Source: an uncultured delta proteobacterium
Lineage (GTDB): Bacteria; Desulfobacterota; Binatia; UBA9968
Direction of reading: 5' to 3'
DNA: 64,000 bases
NCBI GenBank assembly: GCA_963728565.1
Contig: CAVSLC010000012.1
Coordinates: forward strand, 1-64,000
Both the position numbers and the translations under genes were made by a program. Below the pieces are notes generated by a model, which made no database searches, was not told the DNA's origin, and saw only the letters and a program-made list of their open reading frames with translations. This document shows, piece by piece, positions 584 through 18,691 of this stretch; position 1 is the first letter of the stretch; each line of letters starts with the position of its first letter.

Positions 584-1642
584 GGCAAAGCCGCATTGCG
601 GGCTCAACGCAAGCTGCTCGATGGGGATATAGCGGGCCGCCTCATCGATGCGCCGCCTCAGTTCATCGACGGTTTCGACTCGGCCCACCTTGGTGGTAAT
701 CAGACCTAAAACAACCGTCTTGCCTTTCGGAACCAAGCGCAGGGGCTCAAGCTGCCGGCCCGTTCGGTGTCGTATTCGAGCAGCAGGCGTGGGTGATTCA
801 GGCCGTTGAAAAAGCTTCTCCGCAATGGCATCATAGCTGCCTTCGCGGTGCCACATGCTTTGGCGGTTGCCCCGGCATAAGTGAATTCCGAACGTGATAT
901 CGGGAAAACCGGCAATGACTTGATTGTCGGCTATGATCGAGCGCTCCATATTCCGCTCCGGATCTTCGCCGCGGGCGCACATGGCAGCCAACGACGGGCC
1001 ATCCACATAGGCGGTGTAACCCGGAGCATCGATGCCGACGTAGCGACAGCCCGCTTCGGCCAATTGACCGATCATTTGGCGTTCGACCGCAACCACATCC
1101 GCAACAAAATCGTCGATCGAGGGATAGACCGAACGTGAGCTATCGCTATCAAAGCACTGCGTGATTCTATCGGGGCCGATCAAGCTTACCTTGACTGGTC
1201 GGCGGGTCAGGCTCTGCGCGAAGCTGTAGTCCTCGAGCAAGCGATTGCGCAGCAGCCGCAACCTTTGTGTTACACGCTTGCGATTGAGAAGAATGGGATC
1301 CTGCCCCTTCTCTGTTTTCGACTCTTCGGTATCTTCACGAGCGAGAATGTTGTGGTAAGTCTTTACGCCGCTCTGCCATTCTTCGACGCCGGCGACAACC
1401 GAGAAGCTCTCCATGAAGTTGGTCCGACGAAACTCGCCATCGACGACCAGAGGCAGATGATGCGCCTCTTGCATGGCGATGACTTCACGGATCGCCTCAT
1501 CTTGAATTTTTTGCAGCTCCTCCTCCGAGATCTCGCCGCTACCCCATTTAGAAAATGCGTGTTTCAGCTTGGCGGGCCGGAGCAGGCTCCCTACCAAATC
1601 GACACGCAATAAGCTCAAATTTTCAGCTAAGGAAAGCGTCAT
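482..1642 (-). CDS. Cobalamin-independent methionine synthase II family protein (core MetE C-terminal-like domain)
   Basis: VGSLLRP, DGEFRR, HLCRGN and LSPQCGFAS motifs. The LLLEYD segment lies in another frame (ORF 706..915), implying compensating indels near 750 and 810. Confidence 0.85.
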   Translation of the reverse strand: MTLSLAENLSLLRVDLVGSLLRPAKLKHAFSKWGSGEISEEELQKIQDEAIREVIAMQEAHHLPLVVDGEFRRTNFMESFSVVAGVEEWQSGVKTYHNILAREDTEESKTEKGQDPILLNRKRVTQRLRLLRNRLLEDYSFAQSLTRRPVKVSLIGPDRITQCFDSDSSRSVYPSIDDFVADVVAVERQMIGQLAEAGCRYVGIDAPGYTAYVDGPSLAAMCARGEDPERNMERSIIADNQVIAGFPDITFGIHLCRGNRQSMWHREGSYDAIAEKLFQRPESPTPAARIRHRTGRQLEPLRLVPKGKTVVLGLITTKVGRVETVDELRRRIDEAARYIPIEQLALSPQCGFASSIMGNLLSEDEQFRKLDVMVEKAAKVWGSALE

Positions 1643-1999
1643 ATTCTATTTCCTTTATGGTCCGCCAATTAATCCAGCATCCGCTGCCATGCGCCGGAGC
1701 AACGCCAAAGCGACTGCTGTTGGAACCTATTCGTGCGCATAGTGACACTCGACCGACTCTCCGGCATTGCCGTGTAGAAGGCTAGGATGATATGAATCGA
1801 TATATACTAAATTGCGGCAGTACAGTAGTTTTCGCCTCCTGCTGAATATTCGGCCTGACCGGCAAAAACGTCGGACTATAACTGTTGGTGTTGATTAGGG
1901 TTTCGCCTAAACACAGGCAGCCGACAGCACGCTCTTGGATTTTTGACCTATGAGGATCGACCGCGTGACCAGTCCGACGGCGTTAAAACTTAATACCTG

Positions 2000-2485
2000 A
2001 TGGACACCGTTCAAGCCTACTACTTACTTGCCGCGCTGGTGGTCCTTGCCGGTCTGGCCGGTCTCGTGCTTCCGGGGCTGCCAGGATCACCGCTGATCTT
2101 TGCCGGGCTTTTTATCGCCGCTTGGGCTGAAGATTTTGTCTACGTCGGCGCCGGTACATTGATTGTCCTGGCGGTGCTCGCGGTCCTTACTTATGCCGTC
2201 GACTTCTGGGCAACTATGTTCGGCGCCAAGAAATTCGGCGCGTCCAAGCGCGCTGTCTTCGGCGCACTGATCGGCGCCGTGGTCGGCCTTTTTCTTGGTC
2301 TTCCGGGTGTTATCTTCGGTCCCTTCATCGGCGCGGTCATTGGCGAGCTTTCGGCTCAACGCGGCCTTCAAGACGCTGCCCGCGCCGGCTTCGGCGCTAC
2401 GATCGGTCTGGCAATTGGCGTCGCCGTCAAGATGGCCGTGGCATTCTCGATGATCGGAATCTTTATCTTCGCCCGATTTCTTTAA
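2000..2485 (+). CDS. DUF456 family membrane protein
   Basis: LPGLPG, 'AKKFGASK', 'GPFIGAVIGEL'; hydrophobic throughout. Confidence 0.8.
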   Translation: MDTVQAYYLLAALVVLAGLAGLVLPGLPGSPLIFAGLFIAAWAEDFVYVGAGTLIVLAVLAVLTYAVDFWATMFGAKKFGASKRAVFGALIGAVVGLFLGLPGVIFGPFIGAVIGELSAQRGLQDAARAGFGATIGLAIGVAVKMAVAFSMIGIFIFARFL

Positions 2486-2608
2486 CCTTCGAAAACCTCA
2501 AATCGGCAATCGCTAAAGCAATCACGAAACAAGCACGACCGCGCTGTTGCGCGTGTAGCTGCCGAGATACTATGTTGATGCGTTGGATGTGAAAGGAGAC
2601 TCGAGAGA

Positions 2609-3541
2609 ATGCGCGCGCTAAGAATGTCTTTGATAGTGATAACCTGGGTGCTGCTTTCACATCATGAAGCTGTTTCCATCACCATCGCCACCGGTTCCCA
2701 GGAAGGGACGTACTACAAGATCGCTCAAGACATCAAACAGATCGCCGAAAAAGAAGGAATCCCGATCGAGGTCATTTCAACCAATGGCTCCTTCGACAAC
2801 ATCAACTTGCTGGGCGCCGGGACGGTTGATCTGGCAATTGTGCAATTGGACGTTTTAAAATTCGTCTCGGAGATTATGCAAAAGGAAGCCGACTTCAACG
2901 TGTTCGAGCAAGCAAAGGTCGTCCTCAATCTTTATCTGGAAGAAATTCATGTGATCACCAGGAATGAAGGCTTGCTCTCGCTTTATCAGCTCGAGGGGAA
3001 AAAAGTCGCCGTGGGCCCGCAGCGGAGCGGCTCCGCTTTAAGCGCCGAAGTCTTATTGGCAGGTTACGATCTGCGCGTACAAGCCGTTTTCGACGCGCCG
3101 AACGATGCCCTGGGAAAGCTCAAAAGCGGAGAAATCGATGCCATGATTTTTGTCGGCGGCGCGCCCGTTCCCGCGTTTGAAAACTTGGACGATAGTTTTC
3201 GTTTAGTGCGCATGCCGGCAAACAGCGTGCTGGAACAAATCTATCGGAAACAAAAACTCGGGCGATCCGTCTACCCATGGGCGGGCGATAGCGAAACCTA
3301 TGCTGTTCCATCCGTAATCATGACTCGCGAACGCAGTGATCGCGAGTACGTCGCGACTCTGCAGAAACTGCTCATAGCCATTCTGCTCAACAAAGAGACT
3401 CTGGACTCAACCGGACATCCGAAATGGCAGAGCTCGTTTATCCGTTCAATTGTAGGTAACGCCGGTTATCGTCCCGCCGTCGATGTTCTGCAGATCTTTA
3501 ATATTTTAGAGGGCAGTGGCTACCGTATCATCAAAAAGTAA
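2609..3541 (+). CDS. TAXI-family TRAP transporter solute-binding protein
   Basis: Signal peptide, 'IATGSQEGTYY', 'STNGSFDN', 'LYLEEIHV', 'GKKVAVGPQRSGS'. Confidence 0.85.
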   Translation: MRALRMSLIVITWVLLSHHEAVSITIATGSQEGTYYKIAQDIKQIAEKEGIPIEVISTNGSFDNINLLGAGTVDLAIVQLDVLKFVSEIMQKEADFNVFEQAKVVLNLYLEEIHVITRNEGLLSLYQLEGKKVAVGPQRSGSALSAEVLLAGYDLRVQAVFDAPNDALGKLKSGEIDAMIFVGGAPVPAFENLDDSFRLVRMPANSVLEQIYRKQKLGRSVYPWAGDSETYAVPSVIMTRERSDREYVATLQKLLIAILLNKETLDSTGHPKWQSSFIRSIVGNAGYRPAVDVLQIFNILEGSGYRIIKK

Positions 3542-3634
3542 AGCAGGTGCAAGCGACTGCGATCGAAATTGCCGCCGGAAGAGCCGATAGCCGTTCTATC
3601 CGACAAAAATCTTGTAAACGACTGGAGATGCGCC

Positions 3635-4000
3635 TCACGGATCGTCGCGATGAACAGTGTCGGGCGAAAAGGCCGGCAGGCAAACTGCAAGGTATTCCGC
3701 GCCCGCGGCACCGGGCGTGCTGTAGCGCACCCACTCACCGGCATTGACTATAATGGCTTGCCCGGCGGAAACCTGATGCACAGCATCGCGCGTCTCGACC
3801 TGCAGTTGACCGCGCAATACAACGGTGAACTCGTCGAACTCCGGCGTCTGACCTTGCTCACGCCACCCTGACGGGCTGGTCATTTTGGCGATGCTAAGTT
3901 TGGACGTTGCAGAATTCACCCGGCCGATAAACTCTTCGATAATCTTGGGCGGCTGCCCTGCCGCCGGGATAACTGTCGGTGCTGCAAAGAGTCTTGCCAT
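3635..4000 (-). CDS. Cupin domain protein
   Basis: 'KIIEEFIGRVNS', 'GQTPEFDEFTVVLRG', 'EWVRYSTP', 'CLPAFSP' fit a small cupin family. Confidence 0.75.
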   Translation of the reverse strand: MARLFAAPTVIPAAGQPPKIIEEFIGRVNSATSKLSIAKMTSPSGWREQGQTPEFDEFTVVLRGQLQVETRDAVHQVSAGQAIIVNAGEWVRYSTPGAAGAEYLAVCLPAFSPDTVHRDDP

Positions 4001-4185
4001 GGTGAAAAACTACATGCAAAAATCGACAAGCGCAATTGAGTTGAGGCGGCGTCATTCAATCCGCTTGCTCCGGTGGGATAATAGCGCGCTGGTCTTGACC
4101 AACTTCTGCGCGAAACGCCGGCGCGGCAACAGGCGGAGTCGATTCTGAACGAACGCGGAAGAGTCAAAACGGCGACAAGTGATCG

Positions 4186-4812
4186 ATGGACAATCTAGCG
4201 CAATTTGCTCTGGTGTCGCTGACGTCGCTGCTGTTTATCGTCGATCCGATTGCGGTAGTTCCGGCTTACCTGGTTATCACTAATGATGAGGCAGCCGAAG
4301 ACCAGCGGCGCACTGCTAAACGGGCCTGCATCGTTATGACGATTCTGCTGATATTTTTTGCCGCGACAGGTAATTTGCTGTTCCGCGCATTTGCAATCAC
4401 GCTGCCCGCGTTTAGAACCGCGGGTGGATTAATTCTCTGGTATGTTGCCATGGACATGCTGCGTGGCGAGCGGCGCACTCAGGGAGGACAAGAAGAAGTG
4501 CTCGAGGGCCAGACCAAGGAAGACGTGGCCATCACGCCGCTTGCGATTCCGATGCTCGCCGGACCAGGCGCAATTTCGACAGTCATTGTACTTTCGTCCC
4601 AAGCACGAGGTCTGCTTGAGTTGGGAGTCGTCTACGGCTCGGTGGTCGTGACAGGGCTGGTCTCGTATTTCGTCTTGCGGCTCGGCGAAGTGCTGCTGAG
4701 GCGGCTTGGCAAGACCGGAATCAGAGTTTTGACTCGAATCATGGGGTTGATCTTGGCCGCAGTGGCAGTTCAGTTTGTTTTGAGCGGAATCAAGGAGGCT
4801 TTCGGCATTTGA
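4186..4812 (+). CDS. MarC family (NAAT) membrane protein
   Basis: 'IVDPI', 'PLAIPMLAGPGAI', 'RIMGLILAAVAVQ'. Confidence 0.9.
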   Translation: MDNLAQFALVSLTSLLFIVDPIAVVPAYLVITNDEAAEDQRRTAKRACIVMTILLIFFAATGNLLFRAFAITLPAFRTAGGLILWYVAMDMLRGERRTQGGQEEVLEGQTKEDVAITPLAIPMLAGPGAISTVIVLSSQARGLLELGVVYGSVVVTGLVSYFVLRLGEVLLRRLGKTGIRVLTRIMGLILAAVAVQFVLSGIKEAFGI

Positions 4813-4941
4813 TGCTCCGAGTTTTTAGTCTAACAGGGTGCTTGCCGCCGCAAACATCGAGTATGCCGATGAACCGGTTATTCGACCAGGACGTTTGCTT
4901 ATTACCCCGTTCAATTACGACGACGAGAGGAGAAAAAGACC

Positions 4942-5682
4942 ATGGAGTGGATATTTGACCCGCAGGCATGGATTGCCTTCGCCACGCTGCTCGCGCTAGA
5001 GATCGTTCTTGGAATCGATAATATCGTTTTTATTTCCATCCTCGCTGGAAAACTACCCGCCTCTCAGCAAGCCCAGGCCCGTTATGTCGGCCTTGGTTTG
5101 GCCATGGTGATGCGCATCATTCTTCTTTTTTCGATCTCCTGGGTCATCGGCCTGACGGCGCCGCTCTTTACTGTCTTTCAACAAGAAATTTCCGGGCGCG
5201 ACATCATCTTGCTGGTCGGCGGCCTTTTTCTCATCGCAAAAAGCACGCATGAGATTCACCAGCGTCTCGAAGGCGAGGAAGAACACGCCTCGGCGGCGGC
5301 AGCGGCGACTTTTACCAGTGTGATCGTTCAGATACTTTTGCTCGATATCGTTTTCTCTCTCGATTCGGTCATCACCGCAGTTGGCATGGTCGACGATATC
5401 AGTATCATGATTTCCGCCGTGGTTATTGCGGTGTTATTCATGATGGCATTTGCCGGCCCCATTGGCCGCTTCGTAGAACGGCATCCAACGGTGAAAATGT
5501 TGGCGCTGAGCTTTTTACTATTGATCGGCATGACTCTCGTCGCCGAAGGTTTCGATCAACATATATCGAAAGGTTACATCTACTCCGCCATGGCGTTCTC
5601 GGTGTTTGTAGAAGTACTCAATCTCAACGCCAAAAAAACTAAAGCCGCGCCGGTGAAGCTACGCCAACGCTATGCAGAATAA
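4942..5682 (+). CDS. TerC family membrane protein
   Basis: 'LEIVLGIDN' and 'DIVFSLDSVITAVG'; GAGGAG RBS upstream. Confidence 0.9.
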   Translation: MEWIFDPQAWIAFATLLALEIVLGIDNIVFISILAGKLPASQQAQARYVGLGLAMVMRIILLFSISWVIGLTAPLFTVFQQEISGRDIILLVGGLFLIAKSTHEIHQRLEGEEEHASAAAAATFTSVIVQILLLDIVFSLDSVITAVGMVDDISIMISAVVIAVLFMMAFAGPIGRFVERHPTVKMLALSFLLLIGMTLVAEGFDQHISKGYIYSAMAFSVFVEVLNLNAKKTKAAPVKLRQRYAE

Positions 5683-12428: not shown

Positions 12429-13871
12429 CTACGTACCGAAGATTTCGCGAACAATTTCTTTGACCGCGTCGAAAGACAATTGATCCAGGCGCGCGCCAGT
12501 GGAAGAAGTGACTTTTTGAATCCGGCGTTCCCACGCAACCGTTCCGTCGTCGATACGAACCAACCTGAACTCCAGCCAACTCCGTAACGGTCCGTGCGGG
12601 TCGCTGTCCCACCGGCGAATGTCCGCTAACAGCAGGTAACCCGATATATTAGCCTGGCGCGCGCCGGTGGCGGCATTGATTGCATCGAAAGGAAACGCGC
12701 CAAGGCGGTCGTCGCGCTGCTCCGGAAAACCGAACTTCACGGTTCTTCGTTCCAGCTCGTTTCTGATCTCGTCGCGCAGCAGATCCATGACCGTCGGACG
12801 GTAGCCGGTATCGACTTTCTTCGCCATCTCCGTGAGAGAACGGAGCGGATTGGTTGCCGGCAGACGCAGATTGCTGCTCGTGCTGTTGCGCACCGCGGCG
12901 ATCCAGAGATCGTGTTGCCCCAGCGCTTGCGCATTCGGAAATGGTCGCGGCACCGGCGCGCTACAACCAGCGAGTGCGACGAACAAGAGCAACCACAGCC
13001 CGGCGGAGGACCGGTATTTACGCAGCCCTGCCTGCACAGCATAGGTTAAAAAAATCACTGCGCACCCCAAAGTTACATCGGTAGGGCCGAGCGGCAGATC
13101 TAACCGAACTGAGAGATAGAAACCCAAGATGGCGATAGCGACACCGAATAGCGATGATAACGAAAAAAACGAAGCCATACCGCGCGCGAGCGCGCGCGCC
13201 GCTAGCGGCGGCAAAACCATAAAGCCAAACACCAGCAGCGGGCCTGCCATAATGACTCCTATGGCGATGCTGAAGCCGCACAGGACGTAAAGCCAAAAAC
13301 TCCAACGCCCGCCGCCATTGGTCAATAAGAATGACAGATCGGGATCGAAGGAGTTGAGCAAAAACTCGCGACGGAAAAGAATCAAACCGAAATAAACCGC
13401 GCTGTAGGCGATCGCGAGAATCTTGAGCTCCTCTTTAGAGAGGGAAATCACTTCGCCTTTGAGCAAGTTGAGGATTTCGAGGTCGCCGGCGGGATTGAAG
13501 ACTACGAACAGAATCGTCAGCGCCGAAGCCAGCGCATAAGCGGCGGCGAGCCGGCCCTCGGGCGATCCGCTCGCGTGAAGGTCCAGATAGGCGAGCAAGC
13601 CCATGCCGACCAGGGTAAAAACCAGAGAGCCTGCCATTGCCAAGAGCCGCTCGCCGCCGACACCGTGGCTCCAGCCGACCCAATGATAGAGCCAGAAAGT
13701 AAACGCCACGCCACACGCGGCGATCTGCGGCAAGGTGAGGCCGAGAAAAATTCTCCGACGCAGCATCAGGTGGGCGCCGACCAACGGGCAGACGAAAGCC
13801 AGGATCGCGCTCCCGAGCAACGCTGGGAAAAGCAGAAACGAGGGGCTTAAAACGTCAAAAAAACTCACCAT
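12429..13871 (-). CDS. Zn/Mn ABC permease (ABC-3) with a fused C-terminal lipoprotein-like domain
   Basis: 'RRRIFLGLTLPQ', 'SFDP', 'DLPLGP', then an internal 'LAGC' lipobox and a ~180 aa soluble domain. Confidence 0.8.
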   Translation of the reverse strand: MVSFFDVLSPSFLLFPALLGSAILAFVCPLVGAHLMLRRRIFLGLTLPQIAACGVAFTFWLYHWVGWSHGVGGERLLAMAGSLVFTLVGMGLLAYLDLHASGSPEGRLAAAYALASALTILFVVFNPAGDLEILNLLKGEVISLSKEELKILAIAYSAVYFGLILFRREFLLNSFDPDLSFLLTNGGGRWSFWLYVLCGFSIAIGVIMAGPLLVFGFMVLPPLAARALARGMASFFSLSSLFGVAIAILGFYLSVRLDLPLGPTDVTLGCAVIFLTYAVQAGLRKYRSSAGLWLLLFVALAGCSAPVPRPFPNAQALGQHDLWIAAVRNSTSSNLRLPATNPLRSLTEMAKKVDTGYRPTVMDLLRDEIRNELERRTVKFGFPEQRDDRLGAFPFDAINAATGARQANISGYLLLADIRRWDSDPHGPLRSWLEFRLVRIDDGTVAWERRIQKVTSSTGARLDQLSFDAVKEIVREIFGT

Positions 13872-14581
13872 GGATGGTCCGCCGCCGCCCCTTCCTCCCA
13901 ACTCGCCCGGCCGCGGTCGACGCGCAGGATTTTTTTCGTAACGCTACGGACCATCCTGAGATCGTGGCTCGAGAAAAAAACCGCTTTGCCTTCTTGCCGA
14001 TTGATCTTGAGCAGCAACTCGGTGATCGCCGCCCGAGACTCTGTATCCACTCCCGAAAGCGGCTCATCCAGGATGAGAATCTTCGGCGCCACCATCAGCG
14101 CGCGCGCAATCAGAATACGTTGCTTTTGACCGCCGGATAGAGAAAAAAAAGCACGCGCGGCGAGATCGCTTACGCCGACTTGCTCCAGCACGCGATCGAC
14201 GCGGTTCTTTTCGGCGATCGGCAACCGCTCGAAAGGCCTAAGCCGTCCATAGGCGCCCATCTCGACTATCTCTCTAACGGTAATTGGAAACGTGGCGTCC
14301 AGCGCCGCGCTCTGGGGAACATAGCCGAACTCACTCAACGCGCATCCGCGCGTCAATGAGCCGCTCAGCACGGGAAGAAATCCGAGAATTGTCCGGAATA
14401 GAGTCGTTTTGCCCGATCCGTTGGGCCCCGCCATCGCGACCAAATCGCCGGGATTTAGTTCGACGGCGACATCATAGAGAATCGTGGCGTCCTCGTATCC
14501 GAGATTGGCTCGGTGAAGACGCACCAATGCGCTTGCTTCACTCATCTGAGCACCCGCATCCGTAGCGTCTATTTTGCTCAT
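13865..14581 (-). CDS. Zn/Mn ABC transporter ATP-binding protein
   Basis: GPNGSGKTT, GYVPQ, LSGGQKQR, LDEP, SSHD. Confidence 0.92.
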   Translation of the reverse strand: MSKIDATDAGAQMSEASALVRLHRANLGYEDATILYDVAVELNPGDLVAMAGPNGSGKTTLFRTILGFLPVLSGSLTRGCALSEFGYVPQSAALDATFPITVREIVEMGAYGRLRPFERLPIAEKNRVDRVLEQVGVSDLAARAFFSLSGGQKQRILIARALMVAPKILILDEPLSGVDTESRAAITELLLKINRQEGKAVFFSSHDLRMVRSVTKKILRVDRGRASWEEGAAADHPW

Positions 14582-14595
14582 TACGGTTTGCTGCT

Positions 14596-15537
14596 TTAAC
14601 CTTTTTTCACGGCGGCGAGCAAGCTCCGCAGATTGTAATCGATGAACTTGATATAGCTGTCAGTCTCCCGCAAGCCACCGGCGATGCTCTGCAAGCGCAC
14701 CACGCCAGCCCCGGTCTGATTCGCCAGTTGGCGTGGGTAGCGGTCACTCTGCGCGCCGTAAATGATTAACTGAACCTTTTCCTGCTGCATCCTCTGAGCA
14801 AGCGCAACTAAATGATTCGGCGTCGGCTCGATTCCCGGCTTCAGTTCGATCATCCCAACCTGCTGCAAGCCAAATCGGTTAGCAAAGTACGACCACTCGA
14901 CGTGATAGGTAACTATCTTTACGCCCCTGAGCGGGGCGGCCACGCTTTGCCAGCGCGCAATTGCATTGTCCAACTCGCCCAGGTAGGCGTTTAGATTTCT
15001 CTCGAATATTGGTTTGTGTTGCGGATAATTGCGCGACAAGCCTTCGGCGATGTTGCGCGCGATGATTTTGCCCCCTAGAGGATCGAGGTTGTAATGGGGG
15101 TTGCCCTTTGGGTGCACGTCGCCTTCAGACCGGTCAATGGAGCGTGGCACTTCCAAAACGCTGATGCCGACTGAGCAATCGATATTGCCTAGTTGGCCGG
15201 GAAGGATCTTGGAATTATTGGCAACCTCAAACAATGCCGGCAGCCACGATATTTCCAAATCCAATCCCATTTGGACTAGAATGTCGGCGCGGTTCAGCTT
15301 CGGGACGAAACTCGGCTTGACGGGCACCGCGTGCATAAATTCGACGCCGCGCGTGAGGCTCTCAACGTTGACCAGTTCCTTGCCGATATGTTTCGTGATA
15401 TCGGCCAGTTCGGGGGTCGTCGTGATAACATGAATCTGCTGGGCGCCGACTGGAACGTTAAACCCTACGACAAAGGCCGCGAACGACAAACTACAAACAA
15501 ACTTTATCCAAGTCATATTCATTTGAGCATCTCCCAT
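14596..15537 (-). CDS. Zn/Mn ABC substrate-binding protein (cluster A-I, ZnuA/TroA-like)
   Basis: Signal peptide, 'GDVHPKGNPHYNLDP', 'TYH', 'ELKPGIEPT'. Confidence 0.9.
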   Translation of the reverse strand: MGDAQMNMTWIKFVCSLSFAAFVVGFNVPVGAQQIHVITTTPELADITKHIGKELVNVESLTRGVEFMHAVPVKPSFVPKLNRADILVQMGLDLEISWLPALFEVANNSKILPGQLGNIDCSVGISVLEVPRSIDRSEGDVHPKGNPHYNLDPLGGKIIARNIAEGLSRNYPQHKPIFERNLNAYLGELDNAIARWQSVAAPLRGVKIVTYHVEWSYFANRFGLQQVGMIELKPGIEPTPNHLVALAQRMQQEKVQLIIYGAQSDRYPRQLANQTGAGVVRLQSIAGGLRETDSYIKFIDYNLRSLLAAVKKG

Positions 15538-15548
15538 TTAAACTATAG

Positions 15549-16814
15549 CTAACGGTTACGGAAGCCATGCGTATGGCTACCCAGAACCGTCGTCCATTGT
15601 AAGAAGAACTGATTGCCGCGCTCGGCTCTTTCCTCCCTTACGTCGTCATCAAGATAGCTGTATTGAAAGCGCAGCCGATTAAACTCGCTGAGATTCCACG
15701 TCACGTACGGCGAGTAGCCCTTGGTCTTTCTGGCTGGATTGTCGATGCTTGGAGCATAGTCAAAGAGAAAGCCAGTAGACCAGTTTTTGCTGAGTTTCAG
15801 CTCGCCATAGCTGTAGCCGCCGAAGGCTCGTCGGCGCTTGGCCGCCATGCTACCATCCTCGAGCTCTAACGGCCTTCGCTCGCTATTGCCGAAGAGTTCT
15901 CCACCTAGGGTGAAGCCTTGATAGAGAGTGCTTCCGAGCGGCTGGTAACGGTAGGTCACGTCGATTCCGGCTAAAGACCGGCTTCCGCCGCGGGGGTCTT
16001 CCACAAGTCGGACCGAAGGCGTGTAGGCCAGACTGGTTCCGAACTCAATGCCGTGACTATCGGCAAGGTCGAAATAGGTGTGCAGCCTACTAAGATAGGT
16101 AAAACGGCTCCAGGCGCGAGACTTGGTATCGTCCAGCCGCTCGTTTTCTGCGCCCAGTTTGTTGTATCCACCCAACGTTGCTCTCAAAAAGAATGGAATG
16201 GGAAAGAGATAACTCAATTCGACACCGTCAGCCTTGGATTCTCCGCCGACAATTCGATCCAACGATAACGGGGTATTGACGAACGGATACTCGTGCGGAT
16301 GGAATTTAGCCAGTCGGCCGAAGTCGGCGAAGAAGCGCCCACCTCTGGCTTGAAGATTCCAGGGAAGCGAAGTCGTAACGATGGCCGCTTCCTCCAACTC
16401 CACCTCGTCTCTGGTGGCATTGATAAAGGCATAGGCGCGCGCATACGGATCGATAGACGCCGAGATTCCCAGCTCGGCGGCGCGCAGGTTAAAATCTCCA
16501 CCGGTCTTGGCGCGGTGTTCCGCTGTGGCATCGATCGCCATACCGATTGCCGGATTGAGAATCGATGGCGAGCTTTGCACCGCCTGCACCGATTTCTCGA
16601 CTTGACCCAGCTTTGCCGAATCGACAGCTTTCTCCTTTTCAAGTTGCTCAATCCGGCTCAGCGCCTTCTTGAGATCCTGTTGCATCCCTTTGACCATGTC
16701 TCTCAAAGCTTCCAATTCGGAGCTTTGGGCCATGCATAGTGCAGGAAGCAGAAACCACGCACCGACGAAAGATATTGCCGCTACCCAGCGCGGCTGCCTG
16801 AATACAAAGATCAT
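15549..16814 (-). CDS. Outer-membrane beta-barrel (porin-like) protein of a metal uptake operon
   Basis: Signal peptide, coiled coil, 'LNPAI', 'IDPY', 'LEEA', 'HPHE', 'SEFNRLRFQY' and C-terminal 'LGSHTHGF'. Confidence 0.75.
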   Translation of the reverse strand: MIFVFRQPRWVAAISFVGAWFLLPALCMAQSSELEALRDMVKGMQQDLKKALSRIEQLEKEKAVDSAKLGQVEKSVQAVQSSPSILNPAIGMAIDATAEHRAKTGGDFNLRAAELGISASIDPYARAYAFINATRDEVELEEAAIVTTSLPWNLQARGGRFFADFGRLAKFHPHEYPFVNTPLSLDRIVGGESKADGVELSYLFPIPFFLRATLGGYNKLGAENERLDDTKSRAWSRFTYLSRLHTYFDLADSHGIEFGTSLAYTPSVRLVEDPRGGSRSLAGIDVTYRYQPLGSTLYQGFTLGGELFGNSERRPLELEDGSMAAKRRRAFGGYSYGELKLSKNWSTGFLFDYAPSIDNPARKTKGYSPYVTWNLSEFNRLRFQYSYLDDDVREERAERGNQFFLQWTTVLGSHTHGFRNR

Positions 16815-16913
16815 AACAACCTCCCTCCAGGACGAATGGATAGCCCTCCCACTGACTTGGAATTAGAAAGTCGGAGGGCAATGAAGATAGATACTGTTGA
16901 GTTGAAGTTCGAA

Positions 16914-17210
16914 CTAAGCGGAGAGAGAAGCGGGAGGTCCACGAACCCGTTTGAGCTGAGTCCATTGATTGACCCAGAGCAAGTCATCTTGGGTGATGAT
17001 GTACGTCGTCCGGTATGACGGCGCGATATTACAAGTGTCGGCCGCCAGTGCCAGCTGTGTGCGAGTGCCGTGGATACAGCTGCATTCTTTGCTGATCTGG
17101 GGGGCGGCGGAGAAATGAACGTGCAAAGGCAGGAGAACAACGAACAACAGTGCTGCAACACTGATGATGCATCGGAGCTTATCCGGTTTGGAGGTAAAAG
17201 ACGGCAGCAC
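16914..17210 (-). CDS. Small exported His/Cys protein ending in RGPP (DUF2946-like putative arrest leader)
   Basis: Hydrophobic N-terminal segment, 'HVH', 'ECSCIH' and C-terminal 'RVRGPPASLSA'; directly upstream of the metal porin gene. Confidence 0.65.
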   Translation of the reverse strand: MLPSFTSKPDKLRCIISVAALLFVVLLPLHVHFSAAPQISKECSCIHGTRTQLALAADTCNIAPSYRTTYIITQDDLLWVNQWTQLKRVRGPPASLSA

Positions 17211-17410
17211 GATGGTGAATCTAGCCTAATCGATTTATCTAAGTCAACGAGCGCAGACACTTAGAATTAAGCGCACAAGTGTTGCCCGGCCAATAGCGCC
17301 CGCTCCCACCGGCGATTGAGCCTGATCGGTCTGCTGCAGCCGCCCCGCATTGCGAACACCCCCTGAGCGTCCTAAGCGTCTGAAACTCCGACCCATTTCG
17401 CCTCGGTCTA

Positions 17411-17438: not shown

Positions 17439-17609
17439 AGTAGTTACGCCACGCTATCCTAGATGAGAGGGGATCTTCTCTAACAGCTAAGGATCGGCTG
17501 TGTGCTTGAAATAGCGGCGGAAAGTCACTCAACCTGAACACCGAAGGTACTCATGGCATTTGCTTTTCAAGGTTGCGCATTGGCTCTTGATGGTGCATTT
17601 GAACAGTGC

Positions 17610-18188
17610 ATGGAAACCGCGCCGGACAAGCCGCGTGACGAAACGCTGGTGATCTTAGCTCAGAAGGGCGACTCCAAAGCATTCGAAGAGCTGGTGGAGC
17701 GGTACAAACAGAAGGCTTTTCGTATCGCCTTCGACTTTTCTCGCGATCGGGACGAAGCCAAAGATCTGTCTCAGGAGGCGTTTCTTCGCGCCTACACGCA
17801 TTTGAAAAATTTTGACGGCCGATCAGGTTTTTATACCTGGTTCTATCGGATTCTGGTGAACATATGCCTGGATTACCGGCGCAAAACCAAACGCACTTCA
17901 GCCGAAGAGTTTAACGAGACCATCGAGAGTCAAGTGGAACCCAGCCATCCGGCCGCTCATTCCGTTTCACCGGATCAGCAGGCAATCGCGGCGCAGATGT
18001 CGCGCCAGGTGGACGCGGCCCTGGATGCTTTACCGCCGAGACAACGGATGGCCTTCGTTCTAAAAAACCATCAAGGGCTATCGATTCGTGAAATTGCCGA
18101 AATGATGGAAACCGCCGAGGGGACGGTTAAGGTTCATTTACACCGGGCGGTGACGGCGCTCAGACTAAGACTGGCTGAGTTCGCCTAG
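17610..18188 (+). CDS. ECF RNA polymerase sigma factor
   Basis: 'AFEELVERY', 'DLSQEAFLRAY', 'FYTWFYRI', 'EGTVKVHLHRA'. Alternative start at 17553. Confidence 0.92.
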   Translation: METAPDKPRDETLVILAQKGDSKAFEELVERYKQKAFRIAFDFSRDRDEAKDLSQEAFLRAYTHLKNFDGRSGFYTWFYRILVNICLDYRRKTKRTSAEEFNETIESQVEPSHPAAHSVSPDQQAIAAQMSRQVDAALDALPPRQRMAFVLKNHQGLSIREIAEMMETAEGTVKVHLHRAVTALRLRLAEFA

Positions 18189-18196
18189 GAGGATTT

Positions 18197-18691
18197 ATGC
18201 CTACGGCTTGCAACGAGTTTGAACAAGATCTGGTGCTCTACCATTATGGTGATCTGAGCGGCGACAGTCGTGATCGGCTCGCAAGTCACCTGCGCTCTTG
18301 CCCAGCTTGCGCCTCTTACCTGAAAGAATTGGCGACTCTGCTTCCGCTAACGGTAAACACCGACGAACCGGGCCAGGAGTTTTGGCAAAATTATAGCCGT
18401 GAAATGCGTCACAAGCTCGCAGACCTGCAAGAGAAAAAATCCTGGTGGCAAGCGTTGCAGACCGCCCTGCGCCCCTGGACATTGCCGGCTCTGGCGGGAA
18501 CCGCGGTTATCGCCTTAGCCGTCACCTTAAATACCTCCAACCAAACAACCACCGACGTGCCCTCGGCGGATCCAGCTCTCATGGAAGTTTTGCCAATGGC
18601 GGAGAATCTGGAGTTGTTCAACAATATGGACGTTCTTGAGAACATCGAGGTTCTCGAGGTCATGGAGGGTTCTGGGAACGAAGCAGCTTAA
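18197..18691 (+). CDS. zf-HC2 zinc-binding transmembrane anti-sigma factor
   Basis: 'HLRSCPAC' (HxxxCxxC) and one TM helix; directly follows the sigma gene. Confidence 0.85.
   Translation: MPTACNEFEQDLVLYHYGDLSGDSRDRLASHLRSCPACASYLKELATLLPLTVNTDEPGQEFWQNYSREMRHKLADLQEKKSWWQALQTALRPWTLPALAGTAVIALAVTLNTSNQTTTDVPSADPALMEVLPMAENLELFNNMDVLENIEVLEVMEGSGNEAA

Follow-up and report, generated by a model that had tools for sequence, protein, structure and literature searches.

Two metal-sensing arrest peptides have so far been described, and both respond to copper. CruR (Bp2923) of Bordetella pertussis, a DUF2946 protein, is reported to combine a signal peptide and a CxxC motif with 45 intervening residues and a RAPP motif three residues from its end; its ORF is followed after 162 nucleotides (nt) by the gene of a TonB-dependent transporter, its arrest is relieved by copper, which thereby permits Rho termination, and the 45-residue spacing is kept within 1–2 residues in >2000 DUF2946 proteins, altered spacing impairing control (PMC9426467). 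Toeprinting placed the two Pro codons of the CruR stall in the P- and A-sites of the ribosome (PMC12992588). For CutF of Rhodobacter capsulatus, a model has been reported in which periplasmic copper stalls the ribosome, which in turn opens a stem-loop covering the ribosome-binding site (RBS) of the next gene (10.1101/2025.02.05.636593). Here we describe a family of candidate arrest leaders that head operons for an outer-membrane porin and a ZnuABC-type importer. The reference member lies in a 64,000-nt stretch of DNA, the whole of which we call the window (positions 1 to 64,000 of contig CAVSLC010000012.1, GenBank assembly GCA_963728565.1), from an uncultured delta proteobacterium (Desulfobacterota; Binatia; UBA9968).

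RAPP and RGPP are described as the strongest arrest variants, and RAPP-like motifs as depleted from proteomes, strongly excluded from ordinary proteins and enriched C-terminally in small proteins that are secreted or membrane-bound (PMC12992588). The same 2025 survey reports RAPP/RGPP open reading frames (ORFs) upstream of TonB receptors and of YcnI, PCuAC and PepSY genes, and already lists metal-homeostasis genes downstream, with Cys/His-bearing leaders as candidate metal sensors. In its main text the terms 'zinc', 'ABC transporter', 'substrate-binding' and 'porin' occur 0 times each, and its source data (Fig 4) may list ABC-transporter neighbours (PMC12992588), as may Table S1 of PMC9426467. 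Full-text searches of the literature, covering titles and the starts of abstracts, with supplements outside their scope, returned no paper describing a leader of the arrest type in front of a ZnuABC-type operon. The idea is less novel than was assumed in an initial annotation of the window, made from its sequence alone, since the survey had covered RAPP/RGPP leaders on metal-homeostasis genes.

That annotation had read positions 12429..17210 as a leader with a hydrophobic segment, HVH and RGPP, ahead of a barrel, a binding protein, an ATPase and a permease. Each of these parts was located there, and the whole set is co-oriented on the minus strand: leader ORF, 99-nt spacer, barrel, binding protein, ATPase and permease. 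The leader consists of a basic N-terminus, the hydrophobic segment 14-29, H30-V-H32, C43-S-C45-I-H47, R90-G-P-P93, ASLSA and a stop codon, from which 99 nt lead to the barrel ATG at 16814. The features of the leader and the operon, some of them modelled with AlphaFold2 (AF2), are as follows.

16914..17210, minus strand: leader ORF, candidate arrest peptide, stop codon included; GTG start, 98 amino acids (aa), conserved homologues
17124..17171, minus strand: hydrophobic segment, residues 14-29, signal- or anchor-like by sequence, preceded by K8, K11 and R13; AF2 helix 9-26 at a predicted local distance difference test score (pLDDT) of ~90
17115..17123, minus strand: H30-x-H32 within L-P-L-H-x-H, at the end of the hydrophobic segment; from conservation in 127 sequences
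17076..17084, minus strand: C43-x-C45 (K-E-C-S-C); from conservation and spacing to R90
16932..16943, minus strand: R90-G-P-P93 codons, predicted stall site with the first Pro in the P-site and the second in the A-site; register borrowed from the CruR toeprint
16920..16928, minus strand: CU-rich anti-Shine-Dalgarno stretch UCUCUCUCC, codons S95-L96-S97, +10 to +18 from the first base of the P-site; from predicted folding
16843..16879, minus strand: intergenic hairpin of the GCCCUCC...GGGAGGC type, nested within the helix of anti-Shine-Dalgarno and Shine-Dalgarno (SD); from predicted folding and covariance-model alignment
16820..16828, minus strand: SD GGAGGGAGG of the barrel gene; from sequence and predicted folding
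15549..16814, minus strand: outer-membrane 16-strand porin-like barrel, 421 aa, with N-terminal coiled coil and His motifs HPHE and SHTHGF; from AF2 and Foldseek
14596..15537, minus strand: ZnuA-family periplasmic binding protein with three-His site H69/H148/H212; PF01297, E 8e-48
13865..14581, minus strand: ATP-binding cassette (ABC) ATPase; PF00005, nearest NCBIfam model AztA, under its cut-off
12429..13901, minus strand: ABC-3 permease with an in-frame C-terminal domain of ~195 aa; PF00950

A word-indexed search returned 23 homologues of the leader, 91–99 aa long and 46–89% identical, for which the only name was 'hypothetical protein'. Among these, L-P-L-H-x-H-F-S, K-E-C-x-C-..-G-x-R and V-R-[GA]-P-P were conserved, with the cores L-P-L-H-x-H, K-E-C-x-C and R-[GA]-P-P invariant, and residues 55–88 were variable. 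RGPP and RAPP were interchangeable between close homologues, as they are in the published arrest class to which the initial annotation had assigned the motif. A profile made from close homologues and scored against 1.84 billion cluster representatives (E ≤ 0.001) matched 136 proteins. R-x-P-P was found in the last 12 residues of 126 of them (100 RAPP, 22 RGPP, 3 RSPP and 1 RDPP), and the other 10 were mostly visibly truncated or unrelated fragments. The two prolines were followed by five residues in 76 of the 126 sequences, two in 26, three in 10, four in 9, six in 3 and eight in 2. CxC rather than CxxC, as already pointed out in the initial annotation, was present in 124 of the 126 RxPP-tailed sequences, with HxH located 9–12 residues ahead of it in 123 of these 124. 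Between the second Cys and the Arg, 119 of the 124 had exactly 44 intervening residues (45 in 4 and 42 in 1).

Across 127 aligned leaders, whose mean column identity was 17%, H32, C45, R90, P92 and P93 were invariant, and L27, P28, H30, C43 and G48 were at least 90% conserved. The CxCxH ligand set originally suggested was upheld for CxC; H47 is variable, with Q, G or H among the homologues, and our candidates for conserved ligands are H30, H32, C43 and C45. AF2 modelling from the 127-sequence alignment gave a single helix at residues 9-26 and coil otherwise, with no fold past the N-terminal helix. The linker from CxC to Arg, fixed in length and free in sequence, hence resembles a ruler from a sensing site to the peptidyl-transferase centre rather than a folded domain. 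Judged by this pattern, the leader ORF is a conserved gene, well past chance.

Gene-neighbourhood counts were based on 80 loci from a barrel-alignment scan of one genome per species; the 136 profile matches are mostly metagenomic. The set comprises 28 close loci, with barrels 60–81% identical, and 52 distant loci, with barrels 36–60% identical. A leader ORF was found in all 25 close loci having upstream DNA, with a barrel homologue as the next gene in all 25; the remaining three (L022, L025 and L028) have <200 nt of upstream DNA. Conservation of the ORF and of RGPP upstream of orthologous porins, which the initial annotation had named as its own refutation test, was therefore borne out, with RGPP and RAPP interchanging. 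Homologues of the binding protein, ATPase and permease continue in the 28 close loci as far as the contigs reach, the contig ending before the operon is complete in L002, L005, L015 and L027. The distance from the leader end to the estimated barrel start was 74–111 nt in the 25 close loci, and the leader-barrel spacer, measured in 24 cases comprising the window and 23 loci (L014 and L026 left out), was 73–107 nt long. The closest named relatives of the barrel come from metagenome-assembled genomes that carry the label Candidatus Binatia or 'Deltaproteobacteria bacterium'.

Two of the close loci show irregular leaders. In L014 (5522-5827) the leader halves lie in two frames, with RGPP in the second, which may reflect a frameshift or an assembly error. 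L004 has a second leader copy 1.3 kb further upstream, ending RAPPYFL, 258 nt ahead of an NlpC/P60 gene.

Upstream of the leader start, a consensus scan of the window identified one further element.

17218..17247, minus strand: sigma-70-like promoter, TTGACT and TAGATT separated by 18 nt, with 7 nt between its end and the GTG

The pattern TTGAC[AT]-N17-18-TAnnnn-N5-8-[A/G]TG, in frame with the leader (97–101 codons), was found in 24 of 25 cases (the window and 24 loci; absent from L016), and no SD precedes the leader start in the window. Because a -35/-10 pair located 5–8 nt before the start is combined with the lack of an SD, the leader mRNA appears to be leaderless, often GTG-started and transcribed from a near-consensus promoter. 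Such an arrangement fits control exerted after transcription initiation.

We then analyzed RNA pairing between the leader and the barrel start. In the minimum-free-energy fold of the window, UCUCUCC within codons S95-L96-S97 pairs with GGAGGGA of the barrel SD and encloses the hairpin GCCCUCC...GGGAGGC. A CU-rich run after RxPP, C-rich and G-rich arms and the SD make up the four elements concerned, which can be recognised by eye in most of the 24 spacers folded (the window and 23 loci; L014, L026 and the second copy in L004 lacked an RxPP frame or a clean barrel start and were omitted). In L018 the ORF stops one codon past RAPP and the CU-rich run comes after the stop, so that the element holds its place relative to RxPP and not to the reading frame, and is conserved as an RNA element. 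If the first Pro codon occupies the P-site, the SD helix has its 5′ arm at +10 to +18, the leading edge of the ribosome.

A stalled ribosome was mimicked by keeping positions -12 to +15 around the P-site single-stranded, and a block placed 30 nt upstream served as the control. By partition function (n = 24), the SD hexamer had a mean unpaired probability of 0.03 in free mRNA and 0.19 with the mock ribosome at the stall site, compared with 0.03 under the control block (Wilcoxon p 4e-7 and 2e-5, for loci that are related and so non-independent). For the window, the predicted unpaired fraction of the SD was 0.04 in free mRNA and 0.23 with a ribosome at RGPP. The SD partner falls at +7 to +27 for a mean 0.62 of its pairing, and the remainder lies mostly upstream of +7, largely in CCN-CCN Pro codons. 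When sliding segments were ranked by duplex strength with the SD in the 24 cases, the best segment overlapped the stall footprint in 16 and was the 5′ arm of the hairpin in 4. Among 29 distant loci with unrelated leaders in which the barrel start could be placed, the stall footprint is again the main predicted partner of the SD (mean 0.66), and the unpaired probability of the SD rises from 0.14 to 0.26 on mock stalling.

Based on these observations, we propose a model for the leader. Transcription from the sigma-70-type promoter would yield a probably leaderless mRNA, and the hydrophobic N-terminus would bring the nascent chain to the membrane. The ribosome would pause at R90-G-P-P93 with Pro92 in the P-site, and would there cover or unwind the CU-rich +10 to +18 stretch that is otherwise paired to the porin SD across the nested hairpin; translation of the porin, and probably of the operon too, would start from the freed SD. 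The His2-Cys2 set (H30, H32, C43 and C45), 44 residues from the Arg, would bind the transported metal, most likely zinc. Metal binding would fold or pull the chain and release the arrest, whereupon the ribosome would terminate, the helix would re-form, and uptake would be switched off when the metal is plentiful. That the ORF is an arrest-type regulatory leader we regard as highly likely. The whole chain, in which a nascent-chain sensor of a metal, probably zinc, unmasks the porin RBS through RGPP arrest and metal releases the arrest, seems to us reasonably probable, and for zinc and the sign of control we see about even chances. We infer, in line with the labels given in the initial annotation, that the switch would be secretion-coupled and metal-responsive; the interpretation given in that annotation is as a whole supported by the comparative evidence.

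By analogy, the leader appears to match CruR and CutF in every examinable feature of mechanism and to sit as a variant among RAPP/RGPP metal-sensing leaders. The likeness to these two systems drawn in the initial annotation is reflected in the same order of parts, in a spacer of 44 residues against 45, and in weakly DUF2946-like leaders on related operons in other phyla. Like the leader, CruR is the first ORF of a metal-uptake operon; it combines an export-like N-terminus with a Cys pair, a spacer of fixed length and a terminal RAPP, and a long intergenic stretch separates it from the gene of an outer-membrane uptake protein. The logic proposed for CruR, in which metal relieves arrest and uptake is turned off, is also the one proposed here. 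CruR differs in having CxxC, in sensing copper, in the TonB-dependent transporter and PepSY-type protein downstream and in Rho-dependent termination, whereas the leader family has HxH and CxC, a porin and ZnuABC-type importer downstream, and SD unmasking as its predicted output. CutF, as described in two reports, shares with our proposal an exported nascent sensor, a Cys motif, a C-terminal proline stall and an RBS-shielding stem that is melted, but differs in its CxxxC, in a PPP stall needing EF-P, in copper-induced stalling and in controlling a detoxifying oxidase (PMC9973294; 10.1101/2025.02.05.636593). Since the operon studied here encodes an importer, a sign opposite to that of CutF is expected.

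ApdA, ApdP and the Streptomyces lividans set are described as small membrane or secreted proteins that have the same C-terminal RAPP/RGPP and are encoded upstream of the gene they regulate (PMC7897499, PMC10951233, PMC12992588). In agreement with that class, the present family shows the terminal motif (RAPP or RGPP in 122 of 136), an N-terminal hydrophobic segment and a co-oriented position directly upstream of the barrel. The cargo is that of Zur/Fur-controlled znuABC operons (ZnuA-type binding protein, ATPase and permease), and in 16 related loci a Fur-family gene replaces the leader. Unlike Zur/Fur control, the leader would act through the nascent chain and translation initiation, with an apparently constitutive promoter and no DNA-binding repressor.

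Fur-family proteins are typically repressors that act when metal-bound. We examined regulators in the distant loci, of which 4 of 52 are without upstream DNA and 48 were scored. To count as a leader, an ORF had to be ≥50 codons long, to end no more than 450 nt before the barrel and to carry R-x-P-P, or a motif close to it, among its 14 C-terminal residues. Such RxPP leaders were present in 32 of the 48. Most consist of a hydrophobic segment, P-L..G-H-x-H, C-A-x-C-V-x-x-H-H, 44 residues and G-R-A-P-P (spacing 44 in 14 of 15), and those of Nitrospirota, Myxococcota and Rokuibacteriota carry other His/Cys patterns. All 16 distant loci without an RxPP leader have a Fur-family gene adjoining the operon. 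Among the 57 leader-bearing loci such a gene was found in one, L004, at a distance of 4.5 kb and next to a second ZnuA gene. Within this operon family, one regulatory position can be taken by a Fur-family repressor gene or by an RxPP leader. A barrel tree with 64 rows places each of the three regulator types in a single group and needs two changes; another 16 rows, including 12 Fur-type ones, had split or short matches and were left out, and L022 and L025 were labelled by clade.

Two observations on these loci stand apart from the regulator counts. The leaders of L031, L032 and L035, with H-x-H...R-Q-E-C-Q-L-C...R-S-P-P, look intermediate between the K-E-C-S-C and C-A-x-C types and may bear on shared ancestry. 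Upstream of the L004 operon (1004-5339) lie the Fur-family gene, the second ZnuA gene, a MerC-like membrane protein and a weakly GNA1162-like lipoprotein.

The occurrence of PF01297, PF00005 and PF00950 in one operon completes a ZnuABC-type (cluster A-I) set. Manganese-type sites in such binding proteins are His2-Glu-Asp, and the zinc type of ZnuA has three His and no Asp. Aligned to pneumococcal PsaA, whose ligands we take to be two His, a Glu and an Asp, the binding protein of the window keeps the two His ligands and has His for the Glu ligand and Gln for the Asp ligand. All 69 binding proteins encoded in these operons have H69, H148 and H212, and 68 of the 69 lack Asp at the PsaA Asp position. 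The three-His binding protein, the His2-Cys2 set of the leader and a His/Glu/Asp-rich loop in some distant barrels make zinc the most likely metal; as the ZnuA-family models lie under their cut-offs, it is a best guess.

For the outer-membrane component, AF2 predicted a 16-strand barrel behind a long N-terminal helix (pLDDT 78), and the best Foldseek matches were OprP and OprO at a template modelling score of ~0.54; the 421-aa protein matched no Pfam family. Its His motifs F-H-P-H-E (near residue 172) and S-H-T-H-G-F (C-terminus) are invariant across 42 homologues from several phyla and could form a metal site. In L052 (5971-7326) and related Fur-type loci, the barrel has a long His/Glu/Asp-rich insertion (HAHAHGHEAEGEEHEEHEEE...), absent from the window barrel, that resembles a metal-binding loop.

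The relation to DUF2946 (PF11162) was examined through the leaders of distant loci. Among 29 RxPP leaders of these loci (24 upstream of the barrel and 5 elsewhere), 13 match DUF2946 weakly (E 6e-6 to 0.03), and one of the 29, a Myxococcota leader, exceeds the gathering score with 27.4 bits. In hhalign comparisons the family scored 94.8% (E 5e-8) against 15 CxxC leaders of sister operons, 9 of which match DUF2946 weakly and all under the gathering score; the same CxxC set scored 55% against five Pfam-positive or near-positive DUF2946-like leaders. In the ESM Atlas, DUF2946-named clusters made up 24 of the 30 nearest named matches and DUF2607 was also among the neighbours, both of which we treat as leads only. 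Pfam and NCBIfam scans of the leader returned nothing meaningful. With DUF2946 proteins the family shares the spacing of ~45 residues and the position at the head of a metal operon, and it has neither a match at the gathering score nor CxxC/CxxxC. Remote common ancestry of the leader and DUF2946 is plausible as a hypothesis.

Several results weigh against the proposed sensor. The search with the DUF2946 hidden Markov model, which the initial annotation had suggested as a check, failed to connect the two: the window leader had no match at E ≤ 10, the model matched 1 of 127 family members (E 0.11), and hhalign of the family against the five DUF2946-like leaders gave 1.5%. The case for zinc is weakened by the copper sensing of the leader's characterised relatives. 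In addition, the binding protein scored under every cut-off of the NCBIfam equivalogs for zinc, manganese and iron, and all NCBIfam models stayed far under their cut-offs when the Fur-family neighbour was assessed as Zur. The two changes on the barrel tree imply one historical replacement of regulators and not many independent ones. At the RNA level, SD opening in the stalled state is merely partial (mean 0.19; 0.00–0.04 in L002, L006, L007, L013 and L020) because the 5′ arm of the hairpin can take over the pairing of the lost partner, and Pro-Pro codons are anti-SD-like anyway, so that part of the SD pairing comes free. Within the window, the stall-site segment ranks 17th of 106 in duplex strength with the SD, and the strongest segment lies 183 nt upstream.

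Consensus folding adds to this list, as RNAalifold found zero consensus pairs in a plain MAFFT alignment of the 24 spacers. In favour of the pairing, a covariance model made from seven close sequences and the two-helix structure matched 22 of 26 sources at E ≤ 1. In the fitted alignment, which leans toward the structure and in which 7 of the 22 rows are the training set, 90.2% of cells pair, versus 76.9% in shuffles (0/500 reach the observed value) and 58–63% with slid partners. Changes on both sides occurred in 15 of its 19 pairs; the SD helix was 84.9% paired and the hairpin 95.7%, with 6 of 7 hairpin pairs changed on both sides.

The same sensor might instead have a transcriptional output as in CruR, the stalled ribosome blocking Rho loading or altering an attenuator, with premature termination before the porin. 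We consider this unlikely as a replacement for SD unmasking, with which it may coexist. CruR is reported to act via Rho (PMC9426467), the 45 nt after the leader stop are C-rich and G-poor (mean C 0.30 and G 0.17; window C 0.33 and G 0.09), and a U-rich 8-mer follows the intergenic hairpin in 14 of 24 spacers under loose criteria. However, the window hairpin has no U-tract, a terminator scan of the spacer was empty, a ribosome at RGPP leaves the C-rich stretch exposed, and a purely transcriptional switch would not need the pairing of the SD with the stall footprint found in 24 close and 29 distant loci. We rejected the hairpin as an intrinsic terminator for its missing U-tract in the window, and this idea survives solely within the transcriptional explanation. 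Reversed or redox logic of the CutF kind, in which oxidation of the Cys pair in the periplasm aids release and metal or reducing stress prevents this and prolongs the stall, so that the operon is induced by metal or thiol stress, strikes us as improbable. Induction of a ZnuABC-type importer by its own substrate would be maladaptive, and sister operons have a Fur-family gene at the regulatory position; in its favour are the copper-induced stalling of the published CutF model (10.1101/2025.02.05.636593), the export-like hydrophobic N-terminus with the invariant Cys pair of the leader, and the conserved neighbourhood of a ZAS-type (zf-HC2) anti-sigma factor.

It is very improbable that, in the style of SecM, MifM or ApdA/ApdP, the peptide reports on membrane insertion, on the capacity for secretion or on the state of the envelope rather than on a metal. 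An N-terminal hydrophobic segment with a C-terminal RAPP/RGPP is described as the hallmark of Sec/YidC monitoring substrates (PMC7897499, PMC10987492), but neither Sec nor YidC is among the downstream genes, and secretion monitoring would leave the invariant His/Cys residues and the exact spacing unexplained. Hardly credible, in our assessment, is a small and stable protein of the membrane or periplasm, for instance a metallochaperone or an accessory subunit of the transporter, in which R-x-P-P would be a non-regulatory structural or slow-translation feature. Such a protein could account for the conserved metal-ligand-like residues and operon membership; it is difficult to reconcile with a predicted fold of one helix and nothing more, a 44-residue spacer of fixed length and free sequence, the reported exclusion of RAPP-like motifs from ordinary proteins (PMC12992588), and a CU-rich element that keeps its distance from RxPP though the stop codon shifts in L018.

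If the proposed SD-unmasking sensor is correct, the family would extend nascent-chain metal sensing from the two copper cases to a porin and a ZnuABC-type importer, in poorly studied soil lineages. More tentatively, and with doubt prevailing, it may represent the first nascent-chain sensor that responds to zinc. In this reading, a His2-Cys2 'zinc knuckle' would form co-translationally 44 residues from a RAPP/RGPP arrest on a leaderless mRNA, metal binding to the tethered chain would release the ribosome and re-mask the porin RBS, and the leader would be a translational substitute for Zur in porin–ZnuABC uptake among soil phyla (Binatia and neighbours). Were this true, it would point together with the copper sensors to a general ruler rule of 44–45 residues for metal-sensing arrest peptides. 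The system offers experimental handles in its four candidate ligands, a length-fixed spacer near the CruR value and a short helix of anti-SD and SD at the leading edge of the stalled ribosome. These handles make testable a question of the 2025 survey, namely the source of the arrest-releasing force when no translocon component is monitored. Pfam misses these genes of ~100 codons, and recognising them would reveal where metal uptake is under post-transcriptional control in many metagenome-assembled genomes.

Two divergent genes lie on the other side of the leader promoter.

17553-18188, plus strand: divergent extracytoplasmic function (ECF) sigma factor; an ECF homologue is upstream in 22/25 close loci
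18197-18691, plus strand: zf-HC2 (ZAS-type) anti-sigma factor; conserved context

This pair is a conserved neighbour of the operon, yet the operon promoter looks sigma-70-like. At the other end of the operon, the C-terminal domain of the permease (12429-13016, minus strand) opens with a signal- and lipobox-like LLLFVALAGC, and a Pfam scan assigned it to no family. The extension is present in most clade-A loci and, in weaker form, in two Myxococcota loci (L074 and L075); none of the other distant loci has it.

Further Cys/His ORFs ending in RAPP were found elsewhere in the loci: L041 8772-9152, L044 8259-8993, L074 4536-4973 (minus strand), L075 784-1176 and L076 708-1118. Those of L074, L075 and L076 match Pfam DUF2946, L074 above the cut-off, and those of L041 and L044 are without a match. 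All five may head other metal-related operons.

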